Below, in pieces: positions 8,833 through 48,320 of a stretch of DNA of 64,000 nucleotides. The translations under genes were made by a program, and so were the position numbers. The stretch comes from a virus. Its lineage: Duplodnaviria; Caudoviricetes. The stretch's first letter is position 1. Every line of letters starts with the position of its first letter. The stretch is taken from IMG/VR virus record IMGVR_UViG_2595698393_000001, positions 1 to 64,000 of that record; one strand, written 5' to 3'. A model generated the notes under the pieces. The model searched no databases, was not told where the DNA came from, and saw only the letters and a list, made by a program, of their open reading frames with translations.

Positions 8833-8833
8833 G

Positions 8834-31280: not shown

Positions 31281-32119
31281 ATGAATTACTTCCTAGATAC
31301 AGAGTTCCTTGAGGGGCCACAAAAGAAAAGAATATTTGGAATACCTTATGGAGAAACACCAAATACTATAGACTTAATTTCTATTGGAATTGTTTCAGAG
31401 GACGGAAGAGAATATTACGCTATATCCAAAGACTTCAACCTCAAAGAAGCTTGGAACAGGTATCAGTTAAAAGATTTGCGAGGACTAAACTTTTCTTACG
31501 ATATTTTTGGAGTTCCTAATGGTGTTTATAAGTATAAAAAAGAATACTGGATTAGAGAAAATGTGCTTAGACCTATCTACTATGAAATGATAGGAAAAGA
31601 TATTTCATTCCATGATTATGATAAATATTTCACATATAAAAGATTTAAAAAACTTCTTGAAAGTCACGGAAAGACCAATAAACAAATATCGGAAGAAGTT
31701 AAGGATTTTATTTCTCAAAAAAATTATTAAACACTACTTCTGATGATTTTGCTACTCATGAATTAAAATCAACTTATGAAGGAAGAATGAAAGTTGTTGA
31801 AAATAGTTTTGGATTGCCAGGATTCTACGCATACTACGCTGATTATGATTGGGTGGTTTTCTGTTGGTTATTTGGAAATATGATTGACTTGCCAAAAGGA
31901 TTTCCGATGTATTGCAATGACCTGAAGCAATGTTTAGATGAATATTGTGATTCAGTAAACGTTGTAGCTAAAACAATCCCTGGATGTCCTTTAGTAACAG
32001 CTAAGTCAGTTAAAGAAAATAATCCAAAATTTCCAAAACAAGACAAATCAAAACAGCACAACGCAATTGAAGATGCAAGATGGAATAAAGAACTTTTTAA
32101 CTTTTTGAATAAGATATGA
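31281..32119 (+). pseudogene. DEDDh 3'-5' exoribonuclease-like gene split by an A-run frameshift near 31717-31723
   Basis: YFLDTEF/LISIGIV in the first part, YADYDWV/HNAIEDARW in the second; +1 A joins them (probable sequencing error). Confidence 0.75.
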
Positions 32120-32370
32120 ATCCAAAACCAATTAAAAAACAAATATTTGCTGAGATAGTAGATAACGAGACTACACAATCTGGAATAATCATTGTTGGCG
32201 AATCTTCTGTTAAAAGAAATATTGCCAAGGTTATAGCTATCGGATCGCAAGTAGAAAATGTGAAAGTTGGTGATACTATCGACTACAACAAATTTGAAGC
32301 TACAGAATACACACACGAAGGTAAAAAGTGTATCTTTGTTAAAGAAGTAGGAACGCTATTTATACACTAA
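32116..32370 (+). CDS. GroES-like co-chaperonin
   Basis: TTQSGIII, AKVIAIG, VKVGDTI. Confidence 0.85.
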   Translation: MNPKPIKKQIFAEIVDNETTQSGIIIVGESSVKRNIAKVIAIGSQVENVKVGDTIDYNKFEATEYTHEGKKCIFVKEVGTLFIH

Positions 32371-32622: not shown

Positions 32623-33245
32623 TAAAGTTTTTCCCTGAACTTATCTGGACTACGCTTAGATTCTGTTTTTAATTTAAGCATAAGTTTTTCTCTAATTCTA
32701 TCAATCCTAGAAACCTTACTACTTCTAAAAGGGTTTAAATCAGATTTGATAGTTATTGTTTTTTCTCCAGAAAGATACTTGTAGAAATCCATTACCGCGT
32801 TCAAAGACCTTTCGGTTAGCTTATAAATATTACCTGCGCTATCCACCTTCTTAACACACAACTCGATATATCCTAAATCCTCCATAGTTTTTATATGGAG
32901 GTTGTGTTGTTTTAGTCCTAGTTGCCTGAAATCATCTAATGTAAAAAACTGAATAGGGAACAAATAAAGCAATGCCTCTAGTTCCGAATAATGTTTGATG
33001 TTATATAGTTTGCATATAAATGGTTTTACAACAATCAAATGCTGCAGCAGATTATACCCTTCCACAAAATTATAGAGAACAGTCTTATCTTCTCGATTGT
33101 ATTTCCTCTTCAATTTCGGATTAGAACTACTGTTTGAAATTTTAGCCTTGTTTGCTATAATAGTTTTTCTAGTACTTTCACTTAAATTCGCAAGTGCTTC
33201 TTTATCAGATAATTCTCCTTTCTTCAATTTTAAATCTTTTTTCAT
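32619..33245 (-). CDS. winged-helix protein, possible late-gene regulator
   Basis: ELEALLYL, MEDLGYIE, IYKLT; divergent from the late promoter. Confidence 0.5.
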   Translation of the reverse strand: MKKDLKLKKGELSDKEALANLSESTRKTIIANKAKISNSSSNPKLKRKYNREDKTVLYNFVEGYNLLQHLIVVKPFICKLYNIKHYSELEALLYLFPIQFFTLDDFRQLGLKQHNLHIKTMEDLGYIELCVKKVDSAGNIYKLTERSLNAVMDFYKYLSGEKTITIKSDLNPFRSSKVSRIDRIREKLMLKLKTESKRSPDKFREKLY

Positions 33246-33307
33246 GAAATTTATGATATAATAGTTTTATATTACAAAAATACACTTATTAATATAAATA
33301 TATTTTA

Positions 33308-33315
33308 TACTTTTG
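33308..33315 (+). promoter_or_regulatory. -7 box (TACTTTTG) of the fibre/lysis operon
   Basis: TAnnTTTG 28 nt before ATG. Confidence 0.55.
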
Positions 33316-33343
33316 TAGTATTCAATAGAAAAAACCTATAGCA

Positions 33344-33676
33344 ATGTCATTAATCAACGATGAAGCAATTTACGCTTTAACACAAATGGTCGAAGGAGGC
33401 ACTGTTTTAGGCTCTTTACCAAAAACCCATCCTACTAATCCAGGAGGTACTGTTCAATATTCTGTTTCAGGAATATTAGACTTTATAACAGGAAAATTAG
33501 ATTTTGTACACTACAATAATGCAACAAGAGCAGGGCAGACTGTTTTAATAAACGATCCAGATTTACCAGAAACTTACTTGGCCGCAATAAACGATGGAGC
33601 AAAATGTATTTGCACACTTAAGGTTTATCCACCTACTTCAGATTCAGATGTTTCATTCATTGTAAAACTTAGGTAG
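33344..33676 (+). CDS. hypothetical (possibly virion) protein
   Basis: First ORF of the late cluster. Confidence 0.65.
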   Translation: MSLINDEAIYALTQMVEGGTVLGSLPKTHPTNPGGTVQYSVSGILDFITGKLDFVHYNNATRAGQTVLINDPDLPETYLAAINDGAKCICTLKVYPPTSDSDVSFIVKLR

Positions 33677-33678
33677 GT

Positions 33679-33891
33679 ATGTCAACAACAGTATTAATAA
33701 TTTCTTCTGCAGCATTAGCAATAAGCATATACTCAGCATTCTTTAAAAAACCTCACACAAAAATAGATGGTAAAAGAATACTTACAATTTTGGATTCAGA
33801 AATGAATGTATCAACTAAGATTGTTGGAGACAAAAGAGTATTGGTTGACGAGCAAGGAGAAGTTTTAGATAAAAAACGAATCAACATATAA
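33679..33891 (+). CDS. small membrane-anchored protein
   Basis: N-terminal TM segment. Confidence 0.6.
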   Translation: MSTTVLIISSAALAISIYSAFFKKPHTKIDGKRILTILDSEMNVSTKIVGDKRVLVDEQGEVLDKKRINI

Positions 33892-33898
33892 CGAAACA

Positions 33899-35527
33899 AT
33901 GAAAAATAAAATAACCATAATAATGATTTTGATGTCTATATCTTTCGGATATTCTCAGGTGTTGGTACCAGAGAATACCGGTTACGGATATGACAACTTA
34001 ACAACTGTAGAGCTAAATGCTCTTACCAAAAAGAAGGTAGGGGATATTTATTACAATGCAGATTTAGGGTATCACGTAAAATGGAACGGAGTAATCTTTG
34101 AAAGTTTAGCTAGTGGTATTTCAGGAATAGATCCTGCGGACCAAGACAAGCTTAACAATATTTCAATTACTCAGCCAGTTAATTTAGATACTGTAGAATC
34201 TTTAGCTAATTCAGCATTACAAACAGAAACCGATCCAACAACTACTCCGGCCAACATAAAAGCAAAATTAGAATCACTTACTGGAACAAATAGATTAGAT
34301 GCTTTTGCTATAAAGAACTTATCAGCACAAGAAACGGACCCTAACTTAACTAAATCTAACGTAGAAGGCTTAGGTATTAGCTATACAAGTTTAAGTGATA
34401 TTCCTGCGGTTAGTTCGCCTTTAACTTTTGGACCAGGGTTTACAAGGACTGGAGACAACATTGTTTTGGATAATCCATTTACAACGGCAAATGAAACAAC
34501 ATTAAATAGTGCTTTACAATCAGAAACAGACCCTTTATATTCTGCATGGGATAAGGATTACAATGACCTAATTAATAGACCTGTAAATTTAGTTACTTAT
34601 GACCCTTTGACTGCTCAAGATGTAGAAATCAGCGTTTTAGGCGGTAGCGATTCAGAAAGTTATATTTTAGAGTTCGACCCTAACGGATATGATTATAGCG
34701 GAGAATCAAGCGGAACCGGAACAGTAGACCAAACCATTATAGACGGATCAACTAATGCGGTTAGTGGAAACGCTGTTTTTGATGGATTAAGCAGTAAATT
34801 GAACTTGTCAGGTGGCACAATGACTGGAGAATTAGATTTAAGTTTATTAATGCCCTCTTCTGTTGTTAGTTTTATTGGATCAAACACAGACCCTTTTTCT
34901 TCTGGATCATTCAAAGACTTTAACGTATCAGATGGTTCTACTTTAATTGATTATCAATTTTCTCCAACTTCTACAGCTCTATCTATAAGAACAAACACAC
35001 TAGTGAATCAAACAGCTTATACTGCAAAATACACACTACCGCACACAGGAACACCAGTTAATGATACTGATTTAATTACTAAAGTGTATGCGGATGCTAC
35101 TTACGGCGCAAGCGGTAGTTATGAAGAAGGTACTTTCACATTGACTAATCAAGATACAGATTATTCGTTTATAAGTCAAAACAATACATTTGTTCGGTTT
35201 GGTGATTTAGTGTACTATAAGGTTTATATCACTTTAAACAAAACAACTAATACTTCTGATGTTTTTTTCACCCTTAGTTCAGCTAGTACATTGCCAGCTC
35301 ATGCTACTCAAAGTGTGAATAATATAAATCCTTATTTCTCAGACTTACTAAGTACTAGCGGAAACTTAAACGCAAATGCAACAGCACTATATTTTCAACA
35401 CAATGGTAATGTTTGGTATTTAAAGCAATCTTACGCAGGTAATATAGGTGTAAATGTTTCAAATATAGATTCAACCTCTAGCGGAAATTTTGTAATATCA
35501 TTCTCAGGCACTTACTTAACAGATTAA
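33899..35527 (+). CDS. tail fibre-like protein with signal peptide
   Basis: ETDP repeats, DGSTNAVSGNAVFD, LSGGTMTG fibre-type motifs; N-terminal MKNKITIIMILMSISFGYS-Q. Confidence 0.7.
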   Translation: MKNKITIIMILMSISFGYSQVLVPENTGYGYDNLTTVELNALTKKKVGDIYYNADLGYHVKWNGVIFESLASGISGIDPADQDKLNNISITQPVNLDTVESLANSALQTETDPTTTPANIKAKLESLTGTNRLDAFAIKNLSAQETDPNLTKSNVEGLGISYTSLSDIPAVSSPLTFGPGFTRTGDNIVLDNPFTTANETTLNSALQSETDPLYSAWDKDYNDLINRPVNLVTYDPLTAQDVEISVLGGSDSESYILEFDPNGYDYSGESSGTGTVDQTIIDGSTNAVSGNAVFDGLSSKLNLSGGTMTGELDLSLLMPSSVVSFIGSNTDPFSSGSFKDFNVSDGSTLIDYQFSPTSTALSIRTNTLVNQTAYTAKYTLPHTGTPVNDTDLITKVYADATYGASGSYEEGTFTLTNQDTDYSFISQNNTFVRFGDLVYYKVYITLNKTTNTSDVFFTLSSASTLPAHATQSVNNINPYFSDLLSTSGNLNANATALYFQHNGNVWYLKQSYAGNIGVNVSNIDSTSSGNFVISFSGTYLTD

Positions 35528-35534
35528 AAATAAA

Positions 35535-37868
35535 ATGAAAAAAACAATTTACATATTATCGATTTTATTGCTTACTATTTCAGGAGTAAGCGCACAGACT
35601 GTTATTAAAATTAAACAGCCTAATCCGCAACAGATAACAATAGCAGACGATTCAATAAAACTGAATGGTTCAACTTCTGTTCCTTTGTCTGATATAATTA
35701 AGCCTATCACATTAGCGGAGTACAACGCAATGGATGCGGCTACTAAATTAAAGAATGCAGGACGTCAAATTATAGATCCTACAGGAGTTCCTACAGCTAT
35801 AAGTATAGTTGATGGTAGTGTTAGTACTGCTAAGATTGCTAATAGCGCTGTGAGTGGGATTAAAATACTTGATGAAGCGATAACAGAAAGTAAAATAGCT
35901 GATGCAAGTATAACTGATACAAAAATAAACGCTGATACATATAAGAAATTATATTATGCTGTTCCTGATGGTTATATTTCTCCTAGGGATTATGGCGCAG
36001 TTATGGACGGTATAACTGACGATAGAATTGCATTTGTTAATACATTGACGGCTGCAAACACTTTAGGTAAAAGAATTTGGATTGATTCAGATATTAATTT
36101 GGATGTTGAGGAAACGGGAACTAAATCAATTTTCATACCATCAAACACTTGGATAGAGGGAAGAGATAAAGACGTTAGGATTTTAATAAACAACTTACTT
36201 AGCCCTGCATTTTACATTGCGCTCCAAGAAAATGTTACGTTTAAAAACATTACTTTCTCATACGACAACACTTATGACGCAACAATAAGATATACAGACG
36301 CTTCTACATTAGCAAATGACAATCAAATAAAAAACTATCTAACAGCTAATAAAAGTGTTAATTTCAACGGATTAGAACCTATAAAGCTATCACCAGTTAA
36401 CTATAGATATGGATTTAGGTTAGATGGATCTAAGAATGTAGTGTTTGAAAATGTAGTTTTTGATGCAGAGGGTGATTTAGCTAACGCATACCCGCTAGGA
36501 TGGATCAAATTAATTGAACAATATTCAGAATCAACATCAGTTGTATCTGGTGGCGCAACAACGGTTTGTGAAAATATAACATTTAAAAATATAGACTTCA
36601 ACAAGTCTATAATGGGGATTCAAGGACTTGTTCAGGGTTTTTACATGAGTGATGTAAAGTCATATTACTTCACTGATTGCCAAGATGGAGACGGATCAAA
36701 TCTAGGAGGTGAACACGCAGGATCAACAGCTTATTGGATGCCGCCACCACATTTAATTTACTTAAACAATGACGGTTCAGTAAATCATCAATCAAAAGAT
36801 ATACACATTAACAATGTTATTGATTATGGCTTTTTGGTTGGAACAACAGCTGTAAGAGCAGATGGTAGAGATAATCAAGGCTACTTAACATCGTTAAAAA
36901 CTGTAAATAACATGAGTAACGTTTATGTTGATGGTTATAAATCATATAGAAGAGATGGATTAGCAGATATTGGAGATATTACAAACGGAGTTTATAAAAA
37001 TATGTATAGTGAAAGTACTACTGATATTTTTGAGAGTTCAAGGCAATTTACACCTCTTAGGTTTGTTGGTATAATGGATGATGTTTTGTTTGACAATATA
37101 GTTATAAAAGATTTATCAGATATAGCTTCTACATATCCAATTAGCAGGTCTTACGGAGATAACGTAACAATGAATAATATTCAGTTATTTAGTAAGACAT
37201 TAAGCACTACATACACGGGCGTCATTGGTGTTTCAGGAAGCAATAACACTATAAAAAACCTAACATATACGATAGAAAACCACACGGATGCAGCATCTAA
37301 TTATCAAGGGTTGATATTCCACGACAATACAACTATGGATAGTGGATATAATAATAACTATGAAATAACTGTTAATGGTTGGAGAAATATAAATAGCGAT
37401 CCAATAGCGCTTAAGCCTAGAATGTTGTTTTCAAAAGCCATAAATCCAAACAATAACTATGCTAGATTGTATGATTCGTCAAATAACAATATAATAGAGC
37501 AAATAAACGAATTCCAAACAGATACTTGGACTAAAACTGAGGTTGTAACACTAAGTAGTGGAGTTCAACAAACATTGACAATGAATATTCCTAGTGGTTA
37601 CGCAATAAATAAAGTAATTGCTGTAACTCAAACATCTTTAGACGCAGGAACTACAGTTTCTATAGGCACGGTTTCTGGAACTGCAAACAATTTAATCCCT
37701 TTAGTCGTTCAAGCTTCTGGAACTGGTTCTATTGCTATAAACAACATAAACGAAACATCCCTTTCAACAAGCGCAAGAAGTATATATATAAGAACAAGTA
37801 CCGGAGACTTTAACTCTACTGGAAAAGTCAAAGTTACAGTTGAATTAAAAAGATGGAGATTAAACTAA
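35535..37868 (+). CDS. tailspike-like beta-helix protein (pectate lyase 3 motif) with signal peptide
   Basis: TxxKIxD stalk repeats; PRDYGAVMDGITDD; MKKTIYILSILLLTISGVSA-Q. Confidence 0.75.
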   Translation: MKKTIYILSILLLTISGVSAQTVIKIKQPNPQQITIADDSIKLNGSTSVPLSDIIKPITLAEYNAMDAATKLKNAGRQIIDPTGVPTAISIVDGSVSTAKIANSAVSGIKILDEAITESKIADASITDTKINADTYKKLYYAVPDGYISPRDYGAVMDGITDDRIAFVNTLTAANTLGKRIWIDSDINLDVEETGTKSIFIPSNTWIEGRDKDVRILINNLLSPAFYIALQENVTFKNITFSYDNTYDATIRYTDASTLANDNQIKNYLTANKSVNFNGLEPIKLSPVNYRYGFRLDGSKNVVFENVVFDAEGDLANAYPLGWIKLIEQYSESTSVVSGGATTVCENITFKNIDFNKSIMGIQGLVQGFYMSDVKSYYFTDCQDGDGSNLGGEHAGSTAYWMPPPHLIYLNNDGSVNHQSKDIHINNVIDYGFLVGTTAVRADGRDNQGYLTSLKTVNNMSNVYVDGYKSYRRDGLADIGDITNGVYKNMYSESTTDIFESSRQFTPLRFVGIMDDVLFDNIVIKDLSDIASTYPISRSYGDNVTMNNIQLFSKTLSTTYTGVIGVSGSNNTIKNLTYTIENHTDAASNYQGLIFHDNTTMDSGYNNNYEITVNGWRNINSDPIALKPRMLFSKAINPNNNYARLYDSSNNNIIEQINEFQTDTWTKTEVVTLSSGVQQTLTMNIPSGYAINKVIAVTQTSLDAGTTVSIGTVSGTANNLIPLVVQASGTGSIAINNINETSLSTSARSIYIRTSTGDFNSTGKVKVTVELKRWRLN

Positions 37869-37872
37869 AATT

Positions 37873-38784
37873 ATGAAACAAACAATTAACATAGTATTAT
37901 TTTTCATCCTTTCGTTAGGATTAAACGCTCAAACGGTTGAGGGTACAGTAGGTAGTGATGGTAGTTTAATACCTTACAACGTTTCAGGAGGTTTAGACGA
38001 AACGGCTGTAGACGCCAAAATAGAAACTTCAAACGCTTTAAATTGGTATGATATAACAGCTAACAGAGTTTTAACTAGTAATGAAGGCGGTGGATTGTTT
38101 TTGAATGAAAGTGCAAATGATTACACATTAACCATACCAACTCAAACAACAGGATTATATGAGAGCGATGTTGTCTATACAGCTATTAATTCAGGCTCAG
38201 GAAGTATTATAGTTAGACCAGAATCAGGTCTCACATTAGAATCTAAAGAATTGTTAGAAAACAAAAAAGGCTCTATAGCTAGAAAAGGTTCTAATAAATG
38301 GATTTACTTTGGTGATTGGACTGATTATGTAGTAGTAAATCTTAATTCAACAAACGCTTCTAATCCTACAAGTGAAGATAATTCAACTACGGGATTTACA
38401 CTTGTTGGATCAGGAGCTGTTTTAACTAGTGATACTGATTCTTTTATTGGAACTTATGCAATAAAACTAACATCAGCAGGTTCCGTATCTACTTACGCTT
38501 CATATGTATTTTCTGCTAATGCTGGTGATACATTTTCAGTTTCTTTCAGAATGAAAACAACCGACTCAGAAGGTAGTACTGGTTCTACTGCATGGACTAA
38601 TTCATCTGGCGGAGCTGTTGGTGATTATATAGAAGTGGCTGACGGATGGGTTTCAAGAACGTATAACATAACAGCAACAGCAACAGGAAATATATCATTA
38701 AGATTTTATGCTTCTGCATCAAGTTCAGAAGTTACTTCTGATAATATTTTTATAGATAACTTAATTATAGAAAAAACAAATTAG
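37873..38784 (+). CDS. fibre/adaptor protein with CBM-like C-terminus and signal peptide (paralog of 41172..42086)
   Basis: First ~56 aa nearly identical to the paralog; jelly-roll-like end IFIDNLII. Confidence 0.7.
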   Translation: MKQTINIVLFFILSLGLNAQTVEGTVGSDGSLIPYNVSGGLDETAVDAKIETSNALNWYDITANRVLTSNEGGGLFLNESANDYTLTIPTQTTGLYESDVVYTAINSGSGSIIVRPESGLTLESKELLENKKGSIARKGSNKWIYFGDWTDYVVVNLNSTNASNPTSEDNSTTGFTLVGSGAVLTSDTDSFIGTYAIKLTSAGSVSTYASYVFSANAGDTFSVSFRMKTTDSEGSTGSTAWTNSSGGAVGDYIEVADGWVSRTYNITATATGNISLRFYASASSSEVTSDNIFIDNLIIEKTN

Positions 38785-38785
38785 T

Positions 38786-40126
38786 ATGAGAAATATAGTA
38801 TTAATACTATTGTTTTTTAATATAAGCTTTTCTTTCGGTAAAGATTATTGTGAAGATTTGTATAGTAATTTTTCAGTTTACGGTGTAGTTGGTGATGGTG
38901 TTGCGGATGACACAGTAGCGTTACAGTTAGCTTTGGATTCAGATAGTAATTTATTAGCTGATTCAAACTCGACTTTTTTAGTTACATCTACTTTATATTT
39001 AGACACAAGACTTAATCAAACAGTAGACTGGAATAATTCTACAATGATAACCACAACAGAAAATTTATTATTCATAGAAATAGATAAGAGAAATTCTAAT
39101 GGTGGAACTACAATAATGAAAGATTTGTTTATAGATGCAAATTACATAGGTATGCAGGGGGTTAGCGCATTAAGTAGAGTTGATTTATACAATATAGATG
39201 GAATCAACTATATTCAGGGAGCTACAGCATCAAGCAGTCCATTTCATATAAGGACTGAGTTTTTAACAAATGATGATGACAGCTATGGAGAATGGATAAT
39301 TGATAATTGCGATGTTAACGGCTTAAGAGGTTATGGAAATTATTGTGATTACTGCGATGGTCTTGGAGCTGCAAACGGATATTTGGTTTATTGGAGAGAA
39401 GTTCCAACAGTAGCAACTACAATAACATTTAAAAACGGAAGTTCTTTAAATGGCTTTGGTATTGATGGACAAAATGTCGCTGTATTTAGTCCGTCTATAG
39501 ATGTGAGTAATACATTAGCTAATACTGTTTTTGATAATATAACAACAAAAGGATTCGATAGAAGAGGATGGAAATTGTTTTGCGGAAACATAACCGTTAA
39601 AAATTGTTTGATTCAAGATAATCCAGAGTCTGACGGGGTTACAACATGCGGAACAACAGGAACTGGACTTAATTGCACTCAACTTGGTGAAACTGGAACT
39701 AGTAATTTAAGTGCTGGGTTATTTACATTTGGAACAGGAAGTGGTTCTACCGGCTCTTATAATTTACTAGTAGAGAATACTACGTTTGTTGGTGAATTAT
39801 CAGGTGGAACAGATAATAGAGTTATTTTTGCAAATACAAATGATGTAAGTCTTAATAATTGCACTTTTTCAGGAGGGGCAGATTTAGCTCTAACCACAGC
39901 AATAGATGATATAAATGTATGTAATACAACATTTGGAACTAGTTCTACCTTGTACGAGTACAATATGAGTACACCATATGGAACTATAAACTTAGATATT
40001 GACAACGTATATGCAACAACACCATCTTTCACATTAACCACAATCAACAACACGGATATTAATTGCGATGTCACTATTGTTTCAACATCGCAAAAAAATC
40101 AGAATTTAATTTACTGGAGATATTAA
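38786..40126 (+). CDS. beta-helix polysaccharide-binding/degrading protein with signal peptide
   Basis: YGVVGDGVADDTVALQLALD; Cys-rich; C-terminal KNQNLIYWRY. Confidence 0.7.
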   Translation: MRNIVLILLFFNISFSFGKDYCEDLYSNFSVYGVVGDGVADDTVALQLALDSDSNLLADSNSTFLVTSTLYLDTRLNQTVDWNNSTMITTTENLLFIEIDKRNSNGGTTIMKDLFIDANYIGMQGVSALSRVDLYNIDGINYIQGATASSSPFHIRTEFLTNDDDSYGEWIIDNCDVNGLRGYGNYCDYCDGLGAANGYLVYWREVPTVATTITFKNGSSLNGFGIDGQNVAVFSPSIDVSNTLANTVFDNITTKGFDRRGWKLFCGNITVKNCLIQDNPESDGVTTCGTTGTGLNCTQLGETGTSNLSAGLFTFGTGSGSTGSYNLLVENTTFVGELSGGTDNRVIFANTNDVSLNNCTFSGGADLALTTAIDDINVCNTTFGTSSTLYEYNMSTPYGTINLDIDNVYATTPSFTLTTINNTDINCDVTIVSTSQKNQNLIYWRY

Positions 40127-40137
40127 ATATATAAATT

Positions 40138-40413
40138 ATGACAAAATTAATAGAAAAAACACAATCAAAAGCAGAGAACTATTGGATATTATTCTTTAGA
40201 ATACCTGGACTATTTTTATTCTTTCTTCCGTTTATACCTGTAACTATGGGGTATATTAATTCTAACGTTGATAAGGTTAGATTAGATGGTGGAGATTGGC
40301 AATTACTTGGATTAGGATTTTTCCTAGTTTGGGGAAGTTCTTATTTTGGTATTTTAGGAAACAAATTAGGAATGTTCTTATCTAGCAAGTTTGGATTAAA
40401 CAATAAAGAGTAA
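40138..40413 (+). CDS. two-TM membrane protein, holin candidate
   Basis: Two hydrophobic helices; near the endolysin. Confidence 0.45.
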   Translation: MTKLIEKTQSKAENYWILFFRIPGLFLFFLPFIPVTMGYINSNVDKVRLDGGDWQLLGLGFFLVWGSSYFGILGNKLGMFLSSKFGLNNKE

Positions 40414-40546
40414 GGATATGAAAACATTAATAGCAATATCTATTATATGCTTGATTATTCAATACTTCCTAGAAGACACTAAATCAAGTAGAGATAATAC
40501 ACCGAAAACAGATCCATAGAATGTACAATAAAATCCCCCCTTTTTT

Positions 40547-41167
40547 TTGGGAACAACAAAATTTGTAAGTAGATACAACTATAAAAGGAGGATTTTAGCT
40601 TTCAGGTTGCGTTGCGCAAAAAAAAGATTGAGACAGAAAGCTTGGGTAAGAAGAATAATACGTAGCAAAGTATTGGTTTATATTCCTGTAGCTATGCTTT
40701 CTATTAAGCTTTACATAGAGAGAGAGGCTAGAGTTACTGCAGAAGTAAAGGCGGCACTATACGAAAGCCAGGCAAAGAGCACTATTAAAACCTTTGACGA
40801 TATGAAGGTTAGTTATTTCGAGAAGCTTTTAAGAAAGAACTACTTCATAATGCTAGGCACTAATGATTATTACGACGAGCAGTTTACAAGTAGACTTGGT
40901 TTTGAAGGAATAGATTATTTAGGAAAAAAAGATTCAGATTTACAAGACACTACAAGCGCGTATGGCTATTCCAAAAGCGACATGAAGGTTGTATACTCTT
41001 TAGATCGAGAATGGTTCCGAGAATACTTTATAGTAAAGAAAGATACTCAGGAATTAGCTGTATTCAAATTTTGTAGAATAGAACTAAATAAAGATACAGT
41101 GGTAGGAGGACTTCCTTTTGATATGGAAAAACTAAAAAAAGAATTAAAACTTAAAGATATAGATTAA
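40547..41167 (+). CDS. membrane-anchored protein with PAS-like C-terminal region
   Basis: Basic N-terminus, TM, NDYYDEQF...YLGKKD...SDMKV; true start probably ATG 40521 across a homopolymer frameshift. Confidence 0.5.
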   Translation: MGTTKFVSRYNYKRRILAFRLRCAKKRLRQKAWVRRIIRSKVLVYIPVAMLSIKLYIEREARVTAEVKAALYESQAKSTIKTFDDMKVSYFEKLLRKNYFIMLGTNDYYDEQFTSRLGFEGIDYLGKKDSDLQDTTSAYGYSKSDMKVVYSLDREWFREYFIVKKDTQELAVFKFCRIELNKDTVVGGLPFDMEKLKKELKLKDID

Positions 41168-41171
41168 TAAG

Positions 41172-42086
41172 ATGAAACAAACAATTAGCATAGTATTATT
41201 TTTCATCCTTTCATTAGGATTAAACGCTCAAACGGTTGAGGGTACAGTGGGTAGTGATGGTAGTTTAATTCCTTATAACGTTTCAGGAGGATTAGACGAA
41301 ACTGCTGTAGACGCTAAAATAGAAACAGCTAACGCATTAAATATATCTAGCTTAACATCAGATAGAACGATTGCAAAAACTGATTTTGGCGGCATTATAA
41401 AGCATACCACAACAGGAACTAAAAGAATTAACATTCCAACGGAATCGGTGGGAGTTTTTGAAGATGATGGTGTCGTTTCTATTTTAGCTAATGGTGGCGG
41501 AAAAACTATTATAAATCATTCAAATGGAGTTACTATAGATAGACTACAATTAGAAGGAAAAGGTAAGATGGGAACTATAGCAAGAAACGGTTCTGATAAT
41601 TGGTTGTATTGGGGATCTTTTGAACCTTATGTAAATGATAATCCAGAAGTATATGTGTTTTTAAATAGCCTAAGTAAAAGCAATAACACAGATTCGACAA
41701 CTGGTTTAACTGAATACCAATCTACTATTTCTAGTGTTCTTGACGGAGGAATTTACGTTACTCAGGTGGAAAGTTTAAACGGTTCTAATATCGATAGGCT
41801 TTTAGAAGGCATACCTACAACATATGGATTAGTATACGAGTATGAATTTGAAGCAAGAAGTATAGAGGGCGCTGCAATTAGTAAACATATTAGATTTTCT
41901 ACAGTTTTGGAAAATATAAACATAACGCTTTCTGACGCATGGACTAAATACACAGGAACTTTTACTGCTGATGGTACGCAAATGACTTTTAATGCTTATA
42001 CAAATAGACTTTCTAGTGGTGCAGTTTCTGGAAGTATAGGCGATAAACTTCAAGTTAAGAATTTGTCAATTAAATTAGTAGAGTAA
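41172..42086 (+). CDS. fibre/adaptor protein with CBM-like C-terminus and signal peptide (paralog of 37873..38784)
   Basis: Shared N-terminus; LSDAWTKYTGTFTA CBM4/9-like motif. Confidence 0.7.
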   Translation: MKQTISIVLFFILSLGLNAQTVEGTVGSDGSLIPYNVSGGLDETAVDAKIETANALNISSLTSDRTIAKTDFGGIIKHTTTGTKRINIPTESVGVFEDDGVVSILANGGGKTIINHSNGVTIDRLQLEGKGKMGTIARNGSDNWLYWGSFEPYVNDNPEVYVFLNSLSKSNNTDSTTGLTEYQSTISSVLDGGIYVTQVESLNGSNIDRLLEGIPTTYGLVYEYEFEARSIEGAAISKHIRFSTVLENINITLSDAWTKYTGTFTADGTQMTFNAYTNRLSSGAVSGSIGDKLQVKNLSIKLVE

Positions 42087-43251
42087 TGAAAAGTGCATTT
42101 TTTTATTAATAATACTATCTAATACATTGCAATCACAAATAAAAACGGTTGATGACTGGCAGTTAGATTTCGATTCCGAAACTACTGAAGATGCATATTA
42201 TTTAAGCTTATCTAACTCAAATGATGATGATGATAACTACTATATAGACTTTTCGCAATACGTAAGCATGTATCAAGCGTCTGGCGACGAATCATATTTA
42301 GATGTGGCGGTAGATTTATTTGAAAACAAAGTGTCTCAATCTTCATTAATGGTTGATGGGTATTATGGATGGTTAAGGGATGCAGATAATAGCGGTGGAG
42401 GAATAACAAACGGTGGAGGTGGAAATGACGGACAAGAAATACCATTATCACAAACTAGAGGATTTGGAAGAACGGCAGCACATATGTTATGGGTTTTAAG
42501 TACTGCTACTGAATATCTATCTAAAAACGATAATCAAGCGCAATTCGATACTAATTATTTATGGTTTAAAACAAATATATGTGAGAAGTGGAGAAGCCGC
42601 GATTTAGCAAACATATACAGAATAAGGACGCATATAATGTCTCATTGGGCGCAAATAGGTTTTTACATGGATAAGATAGAATCAAACGCAAACTACAGAA
42701 AGTGGTACGATGATTTTAACACAGATATATCTGATGGAGTTTACGAGGGTAGTATGAGAGAACAATTAAGAATAGTTTCTTTAGTTGGTGGTGATGGTTA
42801 TGTATGGTCTGGAGAATGGGGTGTGACTACAAACGTGAACGATGTTTCACACGCTAACGCAGAGGTTGAGTTAATGGTTGCAGGTGCTGAAAGTTCTGAT
42901 TACTGGAGCTTAACAGATATGTCAAGACTGATTAATACTTTCGATGAAAATGTTTACAGAAGTAGCACTCAGGGATGGGAGTATATGGATGGAACATCTG
43001 TATCACTAAACGTGCAATTATGGGAGCAAGGATGGATTAAATTAGGTAGATTTGACTATAATTTACAATTGAAACTTAATGATATAGTGTTTAATACTCA
43101 TTCGCAAAAGTATAAAAAAAGGGGGTTATCAGAAATGGCATACAATAAAGCCTATTTAGACGGTGTTGTTTACCCTTTAGAATACACTAGTCCAGAGACC
43201 GAACCAAGCACATCAACAAAAAACCAAAAATTAATTTATTGGAGATATTAA
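42086..43251 (+). CDS. alpha/alpha-toroid glycan-active enzyme-like protein; signal peptide separated by a T7 frameshift
   Basis: MYQASGDESYLD motif; C-terminal KNQKLIYWRY; a T8 run would give MKSAFFLLIILSNTLQS-Q. Confidence 0.6.
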
Positions 43252-43262
43252 ATATAGAAATT

Positions 43263-43769
43263 ATGAAAGTTTCAGGAATAATTGCATTTATCTTAGCTAT
43301 AGTAATGACCATTATAAGCAAGGCTCCTAGTTTTTCACAACTAGCGTTAACATTATACACACCATTGTTGGACGGTTTTTTGTTTTGTATTGCATTAGCT
43401 TTTTTAATACGCTCTAAGGATGCTTTAAATAGAAACGATGTGATACTATGGAAGTGCGAAACGAAGTACTTTGACATACTTAGCTGCGTGTTTTTTGGAC
43501 TTATATTGATTACTCCGGTAACACATACAGAAGAGTTTATTCAAATAGCGCACATGATAGCTACCGGAATGGCAATATTGATAAGCTACACAGCTTTAGT
43601 TGCTCAACAAACTGATAGAATGATGAAATCAGGAAGTATTCTAGGTGTTGTTGTTGGAGGTGTTGGATTTTTGATTGGATTCTTAACTCCATATTACAGC
43701 ACGGGAGAAGGCGAATTAATAGCTTCATTGCCGTTGGCAGTTCATATATTTTTTACCAAAACAAAATAG
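43263..43769 (+). CDS. multi-pass membrane protein
   Basis: About six TM segments; ATG 43263 matches the paralogous start context at 40138. Confidence 0.65.
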   Translation: MKVSGIIAFILAIVMTIISKAPSFSQLALTLYTPLLDGFLFCIALAFLIRSKDALNRNDVILWKCETKYFDILSCVFFGLILITPVTHTEEFIQIAHMIATGMAILISYTALVAQQTDRMMKSGSILGVVVGGVGFLIGFLTPYYSTGEGELIASLPLAVHIFFTKTK

Positions 43770-43814
43770 TATACATAAAGCTATATTTTAAAATATAAAA
43801 ACATACATATTACT

Positions 43815-44360
43815 ATGAACTTAGATTATTACAAAAATATAGTGAGAAATCACCCAGAGGAATTTGAGCTATTTAAGAATAAGTTCTTTCCTATTGTGAT
43901 GAAGTGGGAAGGTGGAGGCGAACTACACAACGTTAAAGGTGATTCAGGCGGTTGGACTATTTGGGGAATAGCATACAACTACAACAAAGCTCTATTCGAT
44001 GATTTTAATGACTTTAAAGACACAACAAGAGAAGAAGCATCTTATATTGCATTTGTAAAGTATTACTTGGCGGCCAACGCAGAATTGGTACCAATGGATG
44101 CGAAGCTATACTATTTTGATATGTGCTATAACATGGGCGTATCAAGAGGTATTAAGATACTTCAAAAATGCATAGGTGTTAATGCCGATGGTAGAATTGG
44201 AAATATTACTAAGTCAAAAATACACAATGTAACAGAGTGCTGTTTGATGATTGAAAGAAATAAGTTCTATAATAGGCTAGTTGAAAACAACTATAAAATG
44301 GGGAAATTCATTAAAGGTTGGTTAAATAGAAGTAAGGGAATATTTGATTTTAAATACTAA
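43815..44360 (+). CDS. endolysin, glycosyl hydrolase family 108
   Basis: WEGG...DSGGWTIWGI, FDMCYNMG, ADGRIG, GWLNR. Confidence 0.9.
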   Translation: MNLDYYKNIVRNHPEEFELFKNKFFPIVMKWEGGGELHNVKGDSGGWTIWGIAYNYNKALFDDFNDFKDTTREEASYIAFVKYYLAANAELVPMDAKLYYFDMCYNMGVSRGIKILQKCIGVNADGRIGNITKSKIHNVTECCLMIERNKFYNRLVENNYKMGKFIKGWLNRSKGIFDFKY

Positions 44361-44525
44361 TGTTATGACAGACGATGAATGGTATGGTGAAGTATTCAAA
44401 ACAGGAACAATGCAAGATGTGATGGACCTAAAAAGCATCCTAATAAAAGAAGGAGACTTTTTATTGGCAGCAGCTTGTGATGGAAGATTAAAAGAATTAC
44501 GAATTAAAAATTCAGACTGTTAGTT

Positions 44526-44807
44526 ATGACAAAAACGATAGCAATAATAGCAATTACAATACTAATTACATCCTTAATTTGGTGGTTTGGAATAAATCCA
44601 GTATCAGATAAATCGTACATTAATGTAATAAAAGAGAAAGATAGTATAATTTTGGTGCAAAAAAATATTATCTTAGACGCGTATAAGGATATTAACGACT
44701 CAATACAATATGGAAAAGACATCCAACACATCAAAAAACTTCATGATCGTTATCCTGATGATGCTATTCTCGATAGCTTGCTTCGCGCAGGACAAGAATT
44801 ACGTTAG
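44526..44807 (+). CDS. spanin-like membrane protein
   Basis: N-terminal TM plus helical domain; overlaps the next gene; follows the endolysin. Confidence 0.45.
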   Translation: MTKTIAIIAITILITSLIWWFGINPVSDKSYINVIKEKDSIILVQKNIILDAYKDINDSIQYGKDIQHIKKLHDRYPDDAILDSLLRAGQELR

Positions 44808-45078
44808 TGTTCATAGAGATAGTTTGTATAACGCTTTACTTAATATTTCTGAACTAAAAGTTGAGAATGCATTTTTAAGGAAAAAGAACGATAATCAAAA
44901 AGTAATCATAACTGCTCAAGAAATAATCATTTCCGAAACAGAATTTAAAACTGAAATACTGACTAAGCAAATAAGCATAGAACAAAGTACCGGCACTAAA
45001 AAATGGTGGAATGGTTTTGGTAAAGGAGTTGCTACTGGAGGTGTAATAGTTTTAGGATTATTCTTAGGGTTAAAATAA
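44710..45078 (+). CDS. spanin-like protein
   Basis: Signal/possible lipobox (SIAC), coiled coil, C-terminal TM. Confidence 0.45.
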   Translation: MEKTSNTSKNFMIVILMMLFSIACFAQDKNYVSVHRDSLYNALLNISELKVENAFLRKKNDNQKVIITAQEIIISETEFKTEILTKQISIEQSTGTKKWWNGFGKGVATGGVIVLGLFLGLK

Positions 45079-45083
45079 GTTTT

Positions 45084-45686
45084 ATGAAGGGATTAAATCA
45101 TTTTATAGTACACATACCGGAAAAGTGGAGTCAAACATATAAGACCGAAAGCGGACTTGAATTGCATGCAGACAGAAGGTTTTCTTTAAGACAAGTAGGT
45201 AATACCATTGTAAAGGTAATTGAAACGCCATACAACTACGATGGTCCCGTTAAGATTGGAGACACACTATTTATCGATGTAAATGCATTGTCTCAACAAT
45301 CGTATGTTATTGGAGGTGAGTTAGAAAACCAACATCTAATTGATAGGGAGAAAAAATTATACAAAATTGATTCTTCTTTGATATTCGCATATAAAGAAAC
45401 TGATGATTCTGAATGGATAGGTTTTGAAGAGAGTATTTTATGTAAAAGCATAAAGGAGGTTAAGGTAGAAAAAAAACCTAGCCTTATCTATATTCCAGAA
45501 GACAACAAGGAGAAAACTATTGAAGGTAAGTACATTGTAGATGTTCTAAATCCTATAGCGGAATCAATGGGAATAAAAAAAGGAGATACTATTTATGTTG
45601 AGAAACATTTATTTTTAGATGTTAGGTTAGAAGATAAAGAGTATGTAAGAATTAGAGTTAGAGATATTTTGGGATTAGCAATTTAA
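45084..45686 (+). CDS. tandem GroES-like domain protein
   Basis: KTESGLEL, VKIGDTL, GIKKGDTI, RIRVRDILG. Confidence 0.6.
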   Translation: MKGLNHFIVHIPEKWSQTYKTESGLELHADRRFSLRQVGNTIVKVIETPYNYDGPVKIGDTLFIDVNALSQQSYVIGGELENQHLIDREKKLYKIDSSLIFAYKETDDSEWIGFEESILCKSIKEVKVEKKPSLIYIPEDNKEKTIEGKYIVDVLNPIAESMGIKKGDTIYVEKHLFLDVRLEDKEYVRIRVRDILGLAI

Positions 45687-45696
45687 AACACAGAAA

Positions 45697-45996
45697 ATGA
45701 GTACGGAAAAGGAGTTATCAAAATACTACAAAGAAAACATTCCTGATTTAATATTAGATTTGAAGGTAGCGGTTAGAAACAATAGAAGTGTTATTACACA
45801 ATCTGTAGATAGTGATTTAAGTGAGGATAAATATGTAAATGTGCTTAAGGCAAGAAGAATGGCGGCTGATGATACTATACACTTTTTAAAAGAAATAGAT
45901 CGTCTTGAAAACGAATTAAATGAAGTAGAAGAAGTGGGTGTTTCTACTAAAAAGAAAATTACAAACCCTGCTAAAAAATACGCAAGTAAAGAATGA
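45697..45996 (+). CDS. probable terminase small subunit
   Basis: Small helical protein overlapping the start of terL. Confidence 0.5.
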   Translation: MSTEKELSKYYKENIPDLILDLKVAVRNNRSVITQSVDSDLSEDKYVNVLKARRMAADDTIHFLKEIDRLENELNEVEEVGVSTKKKITNPAKKYASKE

Positions 45997-48320
45997 TATT
46001 TTATCTAGGAGAAAAAGTTAAGGGTGTTGTCGATAATAAGACAAGATTAACCAAGAACAAATTACGTTCTTGGGAGTACGGCTATAATCCTGATTTAGAC
46101 ATTGTTATAATTTCAAGAGACGGAACATTAGGAGAAGTATTCAATATCCAAGGACTAAAAATTGGACTACCTCAACAGCCTGATTCTGAAGAAATAATCA
46201 ACCACGGCAAAAATACATTCAGCCAAAAATGGAAACGAATAGATTTACCAACGGCATTAACCGACAAATCTATAGATAAAAAAGTTTCTGAAATATATTC
46301 TAGCGGTATTCCTAAAGATAAGGCTGAGGAAGAGGTTAACGAGTACATGATAAATCTATTCGACGAACACGAAGATTTTATTGCTACTGAGTACAAAAAA
46401 AGACACGAAGGCATTTGGATATACGTAAACGGGAATCCTGTTTATGTTCCAGGAACCTATTACTTCGGAGTTCAATGGGTTAAGGAAACAACTGATTTTC
46501 CTAACTTTAGAATAATACAAAACGAGTTAATGATATTTTGGGAGGCTTGTAAGGCCGATTCAAGATGTTATGGAATGCAGTACGTTAAGAATAGACGTAT
46601 GGGAGCAACGCTACTTGGGATATTTGAGTTCTTAGAATCAGGAACTATTACCGAAGACAAGATTTTAGGTATGATTTCTAAAAAAGGGGATGATGCAAAG
46701 AAGATATTTAGAAGACTTGTAACCGCTTTTAAGAGATTGCCGGCATTCTTTAAGCCAGTTACCGACGGCACCAACACTCCAAAGAAAGAACTAGTATTTG
46801 AGGAACCAACAAAAAGAAGAGGTCGTGGAGACGTAAGCACTAATGAAGGGTTAAGCACTTATATTTCTTGGCACAATACCGATATGAACTCGATGGATGG
46901 GGATGCGATATTCAGATCCATACTAGACGAAAGCGGTAAGTACCCACCAGATGTAAAATTTAGCGAATATTGGTCAATTGTAAAAACTTCTCACCGTAAA
47001 GGAGTTAAGATTACTGGAAAATCCATGGTAGTTTCTACTGTAAACTCACTAAAAAAAGGTGGTGGAGAATACAAAAAAGTATGGGACACTAGCGATTTAC
47101 TTGATAGAAACCCTAACGGACAAACAAAATCTGGACTATACAGAATATTTATACCCGCAAAATTCTGTTTAGAAGGAATGTTTGACGAGTATGGATTTAG
47201 TATTATTAAAGATCCAGAGAAGCCAATTAAAACAGACGAAGGAACCATTGTATCTATTGGTTCAGAATCTTGGTTAAGAAACGAAGAAGAAGCATTAAAA
47301 GGTGATCCTGAAAAGTATAACGAACAAAGAAGACAGTTTCCAGACACTATAAAAGATGCGTTCAGGGATGCAAGTAACGATTGTGAATTTAATCTACCTA
47401 AGATTTTAGAACAAATGGAATACTGTGAATTTGAGTTAAATGACAGATGGACTATTGAAAGAGATTTTTTAGGCAACGATGACTTAGAGCGCGGAAACTT
47501 TACTTGGAAAGACGGTATTAAAGACACAGAAGTTGTATGGCGTCCAGACAAAGAGAATGGAAGATTCTTTATAAAAAAAGGATGTCACCCACCAATAGAG
47601 TACAGAAACAAACATGAAGAAAAGTATAAAAACGGATCCCTTGGCAAAGCTCCTTTAGCAGAACATATAGGTGGTTTCGGAGTCGATCCATATAACAGAA
47701 GTATTAATGCAGATGGTAGAGGTTCTAAGGGTAGTATTATTGGCACCACTAAAACAAATACAGCAGATAACTTCCCTAACGACTTAATGTTTTTAGAATA
47801 CATAGACAGACCAAAGAAAGTTAAGCTATTCTTTGAGGACGTAATTATGTGCTCCGTTTATTTCTCAATGCCATTTTTAGCAGAGCAATCTAACGACCAA
47901 TTTTTGGCATACGTAAAAGACCGAGGGTATAGACATTATAGCGCGAACAATCCATTTAAAGTTTATAATGATTTAACTCCGCAAGAAAAAGAATTTGGTG
48001 GAGCTCCGCAACAAGATTCTAAAATTGGAGAAGGACAGTTTTATGCAACGGAAGCATTTGTAGAAGACCAACTAGGAGTTGCTAGGGACGCAAGCAATAG
48101 AGCTGTAGGGAAGATAGGGGATATGCCATTCACTAGGACACTTATTCAAATAAAAGACGTAGAAACATCAAACAGAACGAAATACGATGCATATATCGCA
48201 TTCTCACTTTCAAGGTTGCTTAACCAAAAAAGAGTAAAAAAAGAAACAACAAAACCTCAACCAGTATTTATTCCATTCCAGAAATATGACAATTCAGGTG
48301 GAATGTCAAAAAGATTATAA
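45993..48320 (+). CDS. terL: terminase large subunit
   Basis: KNRRMGAT Walker A, ILDESGK Walker B, STVN, GVDPY nuclease motif. Confidence 0.9.
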   Translation: MIFYLGEKVKGVVDNKTRLTKNKLRSWEYGYNPDLDIVIISRDGTLGEVFNIQGLKIGLPQQPDSEEIINHGKNTFSQKWKRIDLPTALTDKSIDKKVSEIYSSGIPKDKAEEEVNEYMINLFDEHEDFIATEYKKRHEGIWIYVNGNPVYVPGTYYFGVQWVKETTDFPNFRIIQNELMIFWEACKADSRCYGMQYVKNRRMGATLLGIFEFLESGTITEDKILGMISKKGDDAKKIFRRLVTAFKRLPAFFKPVTDGTNTPKKELVFEEPTKRRGRGDVSTNEGLSTYISWHNTDMNSMDGDAIFRSILDESGKYPPDVKFSEYWSIVKTSHRKGVKITGKSMVVSTVNSLKKGGGEYKKVWDTSDLLDRNPNGQTKSGLYRIFIPAKFCLEGMFDEYGFSIIKDPEKPIKTDEGTIVSIGSESWLRNEEEALKGDPEKYNEQRRQFPDTIKDAFRDASNDCEFNLPKILEQMEYCEFELNDRWTIERDFLGNDDLERGNFTWKDGIKDTEVVWRPDKENGRFFIKKGCHPPIEYRNKHEEKYKNGSLGKAPLAEHIGGFGVDPYNRSINADGRGSKGSIIGTTKTNTADNFPNDLMFLEYIDRPKKVKLFFEDVIMCSVYFSMPFLAEQSNDQFLAYVKDRGYRHYSANNPFKVYNDLTPQEKEFGGAPQQDSKIGEGQFYATEAFVEDQLGVARDASNRAVGKIGDMPFTRTLIQIKDVETSNRTKYDAYIAFSLSRLLNQKRVKKETTKPQPVFIPFQKYDNSGGMSKRL

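Follow-up and report, generated by a model that had tools for sequence, protein, structure and literature searches.

We analysed a 64,000-nucleotide stretch of DNA (hereafter, the window), the first 64 kb of the 75,994-bp virus record IMGVR_UViG_2595698393_000001, which is rated complete and represents a marine, 76-kb, Pachyviridae-like Cellulophaga podovirus. Our subject is a cassette of six genes for tail fibre- and tailspike-type proteins (positions 33,899–43,251), each named here by the position at which it starts. The results suggest that this phage exports its host-recognition fibres and spikes with its host's own secretion signal, and that these parts mature outside the cytoplasm. The textbook view is that all parts of a tailed phage are made and assembled in the cytoplasm. 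In our best reading, to which we assign a probability of about 0.5, the cassette proteins are exported, cleaved, folded in the periplasm, and joined to the particles at lysis. The leaders themselves are confirmed, export is well supported in silico, a role in the virion is supported by annotation, and late joining is plausible.

Sec-type leaders on the fibre and spike proteins

An earlier reading of the DNA by itself (the sequence-only reading) had claimed that six fibre-type proteins of this region begin with signal sequences, five of them with Gln directly after the cleavage site (+1). Five intact genes (33899, 35535, 37873, 38786, and 41172) do carry leaders of the canonical Sec/signal-peptidase-I type: their N-termini combine one to three Lys or Arg residues with a hydrophobic, uncharged stretch of 13–18 residues, and positions -3 and -1 are occupied by small or aliphatic residues. 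With the cleavage site marked by an arrow, the leaders are MKNKITIIMILMSISFGYS↓Q in 33899, MKKTIYILSILLLTISGVSA↓Q in 35535, MKQTINIVLFFILSLGLNA↓Q in 37873, MRNIVLILLFFNISFSFG↓K in 38786, and MKQTISIVLFFILSLGLNA↓Q in 41172. Gln thus stands at +1 in four of the five, and Lys in 38786. The sixth leader, with an S↓Q site, needs one added T to be read (see below).

The leaders are largely a property of the cassette. Using a home-made heuristic (basic n-region, uncharged hydrophobic core, and -3/-1 site) rather than SignalP, we flagged 15 of the 159 ATG-initiated open reading frames (ORFs) of at least 50 aa in the whole 75,994-bp genome. Outside the cassette, the flagged ORFs comprised two membrane proteins from the lysis region, one ORF resembling a lipoprotein, two antisense ORFs that are probably spurious, and otherwise small ORFs, four or five of which have Gln at +1. 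Among proteins of at least 300 aa, all five from the cassette had leaders compared to none of the 13 others (Fisher P = 1.2e-4, or 5.2e-4 with 42127 scored as a miss). None of eight other virion proteins in the head-tail module (the portal and seven labelled 'virion structural' in PHROG) carried one.

Gln at +1 is a mark of signal-peptidase-I substrates in Bacteroidota, where it is converted to pyroglutamate (PMC5837995, PMC10653852). Because Gln at this position matters only after cleavage, its selection indicates that the leader is cleaved. That selection is visible across relatives: 23 cassette proteins of six cultured phages have leaders, comprising at least nine unrelated leader sequences, and their +1 residue is Gln in 22 and Lys in one. 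Among 98 homologues of 33899, 20 carry a leader, and in all 20 a small residue is followed by Gln; the remaining 78 are leaderless, fibre-like proteins that share the motif VDQTIIDGSTNAVSGNAVFDGL only. A survey of loci with 33899 returned 12, mostly from cultured phages. The near-identical uncultured contigs L018 and L019 (49 and 69 kb) encode, at 8482–15770, three consecutive ORFs with a leader and Gln (394, 625, and 1407 aa) after leaderless tail-like genes, their likeness to 33899 being confined to a 21-residue motif. The leader is therefore conserved by function, not by sequence.

The hydrophobic regions of the leaders are rich in Leu, Ile, and Phe, with Kyte-Doolittle sums of 33–37 and a cleavage site after them. 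This bears on the possibility that the leaders are uncleaved signal anchors, analogous to those of signal-anchor-release (SAR) endolysins. The N-terminal helix would then hold the fibres at the inner membrane, on its periplasmic side, and let them go when the holin dissipates the membrane potential. Fibres held in this way would stay concentrated for docking, and SAR endolysins are known examples of late phage proteins whose export signal is not cleaved (PMC6116005). SAR signals are weakly hydrophobic, however, and these leaders are not; moreover, the small residues at -1 and -3 and the Gln at +1 in 22 of the 23 relatives make sense only with cleavage. We consider this arrangement improbable.

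Outside the cassette, five small ORFs (67–119 aa) start with a leader and a small residue followed by Gln: 368-649(-), 20057-20350(-), 26167-26526(+), 26939-27247(+), and G000:C1:67521-67724(-). They may be small exported phage proteins. A 130-aa ORF at 57174-57566(-), inside the head-tail module and on the opposite strand, has a lipoprotein-type start, MKKLLYILAILTLLSC... The virion structural protein at G000:C1:67866-68549 (phrog_13764) begins with a Gly/Ala-rich uncharged stretch, MAVGTAALIAGGIGAAQGG..., that has no basic residues and was not flagged as a leader; it may be a membrane-active ejection protein.

The leader travels with the N-terminal module

Proteins encoded on the chromosomes of Cellulophaga baltica, Maribacter, Zobellia, and others share 44–47% identity with the body of 35535. 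These host proteins have a different N-terminal domain and start with lipoprotein signals (...SC↓KKDTEF, ...SC↓AKDADLL) or with a signal-peptidase-I site and Gln, indicating that in the host this body works outside the cytoplasm. In the phages, the leader and N-terminal module of 35535 recur on quite different bodies (proteins P0057 and P0058). Conversely, a 35535-type body (48% identity over 84% of the query) occurs leaderless on the fibre shaft of the phi4:1 'structural protein' P0004, and also in P0007 and P0053. Likewise, phi12:1 gp50 and gp51 combine a 41172-type C-terminal domain with a 42127-type partner, both leaderless. Phages phi4:1 and phi12:1 infect the same host species, and the N-termini of these relatives are ordinary fibre shafts, one of them collagen-like. 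Such close leaderless homologues show that the leader goes with the N-terminal module and not with the enzyme body, and make it a switchable feature of that module.

These comparisons also speak to the idea that the leaders are idle relics, inherited with genes captured from the host. The bodies of 35535 and 38786 do have exported host-type relatives. But the phage leaders sit on phage-specific N-terminal modules rather than the host N-terminal domain, unrelated leader sequences all keep the n-h-c layout and the Gln, and the sequon depletion described below implies continued exposure. We reject this idea as having hardly any chance of being right.

Most Cellulophaga, Maribacter, and Zobellia chromosomes among these matches (P0005-P0056) encode a protein of ~750 aa in which the 35535 body follows a lipoprotein signal and then K/A-K-D-x-D/E, which we take to resemble the Bacteroidota surface-export motif. 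The phage spike 35535 may thus have a surface-glycanase counterpart in its host.

Probable export without anchoring, and depletion of O-glycosylation sequons

We found no NCBIfam match to a type-IX C-terminal sorting domain (A or B) in nine proteins at E values up to 1, and no lipobox, Cys being absent from all five window leaders; among the relatives, phi19:1 gp101 has an ambiguous LLSC. With neither a sorting domain nor a lipobox, the five proteins should stay soluble in the periplasm.

Bacteroidota O-glycosylate proteins outside the cytoplasm at the sequon D(S/T)(A/I/L/V/M/T) (PMC8550257). Taking the expectation from 600 composition-preserving shuffles, we counted five sequons in the six window proteins compared to 16.1 expected (P ~0.002), a ~3-fold depletion, while the five motifs used as controls, among them the reversed sequon and versions with Glu or Asn, were at expectation. 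With five sequons left, the six fall below the chance level that an O-glycoprotein would reach. The same depletion was seen in 16 further leader-bearing fibre proteins of Cellulophaga phages (sequon 17 versus 48.4 expected; reverse motif 44 versus 49.3). In the leaderless virion module of the window genome the count was 20 versus 27.1, and in five leaderless relatives 15 versus 19.2. Pooled, the leader-bearing and leaderless groups, whose members share modules, differed with P = 0.002.

The protein families gave the same picture. The 38786 family comprises 99 representatives with at most 50% mutual identity, 86 of them of at least 300 aa; these 86 divide into 34 with a signal-peptidase-I site and Gln, 18 lipoproteins, 15 with another leader, 18 leaderless, and one partial. 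Sequons numbered 52 versus 96.2 expected in the first class, 33 versus 49.6 in the lipoproteins, 23 versus 37.7 in those with other leaders, and 48 versus 47.1 in the leaderless members. In the 35535 family the exported classes stood at 0.48, 0.52, and 0.45 of expectation, and the nominally leaderless class, contaminated by mis-started lipoproteins, at 0.74. In their depletion, the phage cassette proteins thus resemble the exported members of these families. Judged from their sequences, we consider export and cleavage of the cassette proteins quite likely.

The 222-aa leaderless protein at 3329-3997(-) shows a sequon excess, with seven versus 1.0 expected (P ~0.001), probably because of a repeat.

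The sequence-only reading had gone further, proposing that the proteins are exported and then added to virions in the periplasm or at lysis, act as secreted depolymerases that aid release, or mask receptors on lysogens, and that Cys-rich 38786 could form disulfides. Its export step is supported, since the leaders look functional and cleaved and the sequon depletion agrees, but the three fates look alike by sequence. Masking of receptors on lysogens is without basis; no evidence of lysogeny turned up, and none was specifically sought. Protein 38786 is indeed Cys-rich (11 Cys in the mature part), but disulfides do not discriminate between the compartments: Cys columns 175, 379, 427, 359, and 274 are kept in 35, 36, 40, 27, and 28 of 55 exported-type relatives and equally in leaderless ones (5, 6, 6, 3, and 2 of 6). 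We therefore discarded the disulfide argument.

Virion membership

The cassette has orthologues or counterparts with the same leaders in four cultured phages: phi19:1 gp101-104 and phi10:1 gp091-094 (Assiduviridae), and phi18:3 gp085-087 and phi46:3 gp079-083 (Pachyviridae). The GenBank records mark phi18:3 gp085-087, phi19:1 gp101-104, and phi10:1 gp091-094 as 'annotation based on experimental MS/MS proteomics analysis' (MS/MS, tandem mass spectrometry), and virion membership rests on this record annotation. All 11 of these MS/MS-labelled cassette proteins are leader-bearing. The labels reportedly come from a 2013 study. Virion proteomics have also been published for phi38:1 (PMC13288928).

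The window proteins are close to the labelled ones. The labelled orthologue of 33899 is phi18:3 gp085; 35535 is 97.8% identical to phi19:1 gp102 and 97.4% to phi10:1 gp093, 37873 is 98.3% identical to phi19:1 gp103, and 38786 is 98.9% identical to phi19:1 gp104. In phi19:1 and Nekkels_1, the cassette genes directly follow the tape measure gene and those of two leaderless tail proteins, the latter MS/MS-labelled in phi19:1.

The fibre and spike motifs that the sequence-only reading had pointed out are borne out. Protein 33899 contains three ETDP repeats and the widespread fibre motif given above; its AlphaFold2 (AF2) model, from a 12-row alignment, was poor (predicted local distance difference test (pLDDT) 40.6) and was not used for structure search. 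Protein 35535 contains (S/T)xxKIxD repeats and GAVMDGITDD, and 38786 contains GVVGDGVADD. The AF2 model of 35535, from a 50-row alignment, reached a pLDDT of 82.5, with residues 141–777 confident: a phage-specific N-terminal module (~21–140) is followed by a right-handed beta-helix and a C-terminal beta-sandwich (141–777). Phage tailspikes ranked first in Foldseek, and VIA-align gave Z scores of 22–27 at a root-mean-square deviation of ~3 Å over 300–400 residues with the Sf6, CBA120, HK620, and phi29 spikes, Z scores that were tied with those of alginate epimerases (AlgE) and galacturonases/polygalacturonases.

Protein 37873 consists of a conserved N-terminal module of ~30 aa and a C-terminal domain resembling a carbohydrate-binding module (CBM). 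As to the CBM-like ends suggested earlier, phi46:3 gp082, to which 41172 is 66% identical, matches Pfam CBM_4_9 (E 1.7e-5), at 25.6 bits, just below the cut-off of 25.9. The C-terminal domain of 41172 recurs in the collagen-like fibre phi12:1 gp50. Searches of Pfam and NCBIfam with the six cassette proteins gave no match above cut-off, and a PDB sequence search with four of the six gave nothing meaningful. Their PHROG labels are virion structural protein, pectate lyase, tail fiber protein (twice), virion structural protein, and unknown. The beta-helix fold of 35535 and the MS/MS-labelled, near-identical orthologues support the conclusion that the cassette proteins are fibre or spike parts.

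It could be argued that they are instead secreted enzymes or lectins, co-purified with particles via debris or vesicles and labelled structural for that reason: the MS/MS labels are the sole evidence of presence in the virion, and the host homologues are surface or periplasmic proteins. However, the cassette directly follows the tape-measure and distal tail genes in phi19:1 and Nekkels_1, no other fibre gene was seen in the stretches of these two phages that we examined, the 33899 motif occurs in 78 leaderless tail fibres and a cassette body on the leaderless phi4:1 fibre shaft, and the label recurs in three independently purified phages. We give this explanation little credence; the cassette proteins are very probably true parts of the virion.

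The sixth gene

At 42086 an ATG shares bases with the stop codon of 41172, coupled as in the other genes, but translation from it yields MKSAFFY and then meets a stop. Upstream of its TTG, ORF 42127-43251 continues in frame through the S↓Q site and the hydrophobic stretch (...CIFLLIILSNTLQSQIKTV). As the sequence-only reading had it, a single added T restores the sixth leader: placed in the T7 run at 42098-42104, it joins the frame of the 42086 ATG to that of 42127. The closest comparison is the leaderless phi12:1 gp51, which shares 267 identical residues with 42127 in a 375-column global alignment and whose coupled ATG leads directly into the shared sequence. Relative to it, the window has 50 extra nucleotides at the leader site, one short of 17 codons. 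Either the leader was broken recently, or the record contains a homopolymer error, or slippage allows the site to be read. A scan of viral contigs found no exact-pattern match to it, and a protein scan for relatives of 42127 found phi12:1 and one 34-residue fragment only. Protein 42127 is probably an (alpha/alpha)-toroid glycan-active enzyme, to go by its Atlas model, which resembles (alpha/alpha)-toroid GH76-like clusters (template-modelling (TM) score 0.83), a lead only.

Both fibre pairs end alike. The last gene of each, 38786 (NQNLIYWRY) and 42127, closes with NQ(K/N)LIYWRY (40085-40126 and 43210-43251) although their bodies are unrelated, as does the leaderless phi12:1 gp51; further sites lie in L001 (~10960-11002) and L009 (~5020-5059). 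In phi46:3 and the Ingeline phages, the 66–100 bases around it are conserved at 95–99% identity, with no match to the remainder of the query. The shared end may mark a recombination joint or serve as a functional tag at the C-terminus.

Genomic setting of the cassette

In a megablast search with 33000-46000, matches were confined to Cellulophaga phages, led by phi46:3 (Pachyviridae; 66% covered, 96.0% identity), then phi13:2 and phi18:3. The block 34337-41342 also matches the siphovirus phi19:1 at 96.5% DNA identity in three pieces, and part of it matches phi10:1 at 93.2%. This near-identity makes the fibre cassette common to short- and long-tailed phages of one host species. The window differs from those cultured phages in that a second fibre pair (41172 and 42127) is inserted among membrane-protein genes, the second leader of this pair being broken.

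The region is best read as a phage receptor-binding and depolymerase cassette, containing a long fibre (33899), beta-helix spike enzymes (35535 and 38786), short CBM-ended fibres (37873 and 41172), and an (alpha/alpha)-type enzyme (42127). It lies on the same strand as, and contiguous with, the endolysin and terminase genes, the one basis for calling the unit a late operon; scans for promoters (sigma-70 and Bacteroidota-type patterns) and terminators stayed at chance level.

Table 1 Features of the cassette and its surroundings (positions in the window; arrows mark predicted cleavage sites)
Position	Strand	Feature	Family or remark
33344..33676	+	110-aa leaderless protein	phrog_19366, unknown function; first gene of unit
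33679..33891	+	70-aa single-pass membrane protein	phrog_20294
33899..35527	+	542-aa fibre, leader 1-19 (GYS↓Q)	phrog_17619 'virion structural protein', E 0
35535..37868	+	777-aa tailspike-type protein, leader 1-20 (VSA↓Q)	phrog_11548
37873..38784	+	303-aa short fibre, leader 1-19 (LNA↓Q)	phrog_16053 'tail fiber protein'
38786..40126	+	446-aa beta-helix-type protein, leader 1-18 (SFG↓K)	phrog_22767
40138-40413	+	91-aa membrane protein	between both fibre pairs
40418-40519	+	33-aa membrane protein	between both fibre pairs
40547-41167	+	206-aa membrane protein	between both fibre pairs
41172..42086	+	304-aa paralogue of 37873, leader 1-19 (LNA↓Q), CBM_4_9-like C-terminal domain	phrog_16053
42086..42126	+	broken leader, ATG out of frame with hydrophobic stretch and S↓Q site	
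42127..43251	+	374-aa ORF, TTG start as listed, end NQKLIYWRY	phrog_33201
43263..45078	+	lysis region	four genes
43263-43769	+	multi-pass membrane protein	
43815-44360	+	endolysin GH108+PG_binding_3, leaderless	
44526-44807	+	N-terminal membrane-helix protein	
44710-45078	+	N-terminal leader (...SIACFA↓QDK, possibly lipobox) and C-terminal membrane helix	adjoins endolysin

The 33344 protein is kept ahead of the fibre genes in phi18:3, phi13:2, and phi46:3. Its likeness to the MS/MS-labelled phi10:1 gp090 was weak (E 0.04), it showed no likeness to phi19:1 gp99, and the Atlas was uninformative; we regard it as a candidate docking partner of the fibre modules. As 33679 does here, a small membrane protein precedes the leader-bearing fibres in the siphoviruses phi19:1 (gp100) and Nekkels_1 (gene 52). 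The three membrane-protein genes at 40138-41167, the last with a basic N-terminus and a single membrane helix, also follow the fibres in phi46:3, phi18:3, and phi13:2, and may have a role in lysis. The product of 44710-45078 may be a one-piece spanin. Two co-chaperonin (Cpn10) genes, at 32116-32370 and 45084-45686, flank the unit, the second with a 115-residue N-terminal extension.

Comparison with known systems

The GenBank records of phi19:1, phi10:1, phi18:3, and phi46:3 that we examined annotate no leader, and a full-text literature search of a limited library yielded no paper that describes signal peptides on the fibres of tailed phages. The structural likeness of 35535 to the tailspikes of Sf6, HK620, CBA120 (TSP2-4), and phi29 (gp12) lies in the right-handed beta-helix, over 340–400 aligned residues at 10–17% sequence identity. 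To our knowledge, those tailspikes lack a signal peptide and assemble in the cytoplasm. The cassette encodes several spikes side by side, with short conserved N-terminal modules, in a layout reminiscent of branched spike sets.

Individual elements of the proposal have precedents. The secreted endolysin Lys44 of phage fOg44 and the SAR endolysins of P1 and phage 21 are Sec-exported late proteins that await lysis outside the cytoplasm (PMC6116005), but they are lysis enzymes rather than virion parts, and the SAR signals are uncleaved. The Pantoea enzyme WceF is a tailspike-like exported enzyme (PMC7949094); it and the host chromosomal homologues share with 35535 a beta-helix, glycan-active body that works outside the cytoplasm, but none of them is a virion part, and WceF uses the twin-arginine translocation (Tat) pathway. 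Prophages of Porphyromonas gingivalis have leaders that follow the Gln rule on genes of unknown function, which the excerpted text does not describe as fibres (PMC10367356). Filamentous phages export coat and virion proteins by Sec (PMC4823517), but these are not tailed and assemble at the membrane. A survey of the target proteins of phage diversity-generating retroelements even counted the absence of signal peptides in favour of a phage origin (PMC6199706).

A proposed model for assembly outside the cytoplasm

In our best reading, each intact cassette gene would be made as a Sec preprotein, and the host signal peptidase I would cut it after the small -1 residue. Cleavage would expose Gln in four of the five, which Bacteroidota would cyclise to pyroglutamate. 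The mature proteins would fold, and probably assemble together, in the periplasm, while heads and tails are built fibreless in the cytoplasm. Before lysis, the exported enzymes could act on the dying cell's own surface glycans. Since the endolysin lacks an export signal, a hole-forming holin is expected, for which the membrane proteins 40138, 43263, and 44526 are candidates. Once the inner membrane has been opened by the holin, particles lacking fibres would meet the periplasmic fibres at high local concentration. Docking, through the conserved N-terminal modules of the mature fibres, would take place before failure of the outer membrane or just after it. By our rough estimate, a volume of ~1 fL that holds ~100 particles and a few thousand chains of fibre protein would give micromolar concentrations; with the outer membrane intact for a short while, docking could then be a matter of seconds. 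The mature N-terminal modules are short and conserved between paralogues and across podo- and siphoviruses, and are likely the docking pieces. If export with cleavage and virion membership are granted, we give joining at lysis slightly better than an even chance.

A different account avoids joining across the membrane: there may be two pools, in which exported copies are free periplasmic enzymes and virion copies escape export late, with the leader kept or otherwise trimmed. The exported copies would strip receptors or capsule, help release, and stop progeny from sticking to debris. The enzymatic bodies are in keeping with such a role, and the leaderless homologues in other Cellulophaga phages show that cytoplasmic folding works. 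On the other hand, the non-enzymatic fibres 33899, 37873, and 41172 also have leaders, an uncleaved hydrophobic leader on 11 MS/MS-labelled virion proteins would be odd, and the strongly hydrophobic h-regions give no hint of inefficient leaders. We find this account unlikely.

Several points weigh against export followed by joining at lysis. We know of no mechanism that joins periplasmic proteins to cytoplasmic particles of tailed phages, and dilution at lysis could make joining inefficient. The same bodies occur in leaderless phage proteins, so that export is not needed for folding, and given these homologues its benefit to the fibres has no explanation. The 11 Cys of 38786 provide no argument for the periplasm, as the conserved columns are also present in leaderless relatives. 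The leaderless family members may come from other phyla, which would make the sequon contrast partly taxonomic; the sequon P values overstate independence because the compared proteins share modules, and the within-genome contrast alone is weak (0.31 versus 0.74 of expectation). The MS/MS labels are record annotations. Finally, the leader of the sixth gene is broken in this record.

Tentatively, and at somewhat less than even odds, we propose more broadly that, in Bacteroidota, tailed phages run an additional assembly line outside the cytoplasm for their entire host-recognition apparatus: Sec export, trimming by signal peptidase I, a pyroglutamate cap, periplasmic assembly, selection to cope with O-glycosylation by the host in the periplasm (in this case by avoidance), and clip-on to finished, fibreless particles shortly after the holin acts. 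The exported cassette may double as a receptor-destroying activity on the dying cell. Docking by short portable N-terminal modules would make the exported cassette swappable between podoviruses and siphoviruses, as its 96.5% DNA identity between the two suggests.

Implications

What the window adds is the near-identity to MS/MS-labelled proteins of cultured phages, the pairs of leaderless and leader-bearing homologues, and the sequon depletion. The window is well suited to testing, as its host and near-identical phages are cultured and virion MS/MS data exist for them. For recombinant expression of these depolymerases, the leader is best left off. In Bacteroidota phages, the key genes of host recognition would be misfiled by any annotation pipeline or host-range predictor in which a signal peptide counts against a virion role. 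If true, export and late joining would constitute a new assembly step, in which fibres join the particle across the inner membrane at lysis; the holin would gain a role in morphogenesis, and the movement of host-range cassettes between unrelated tail types would be explained.

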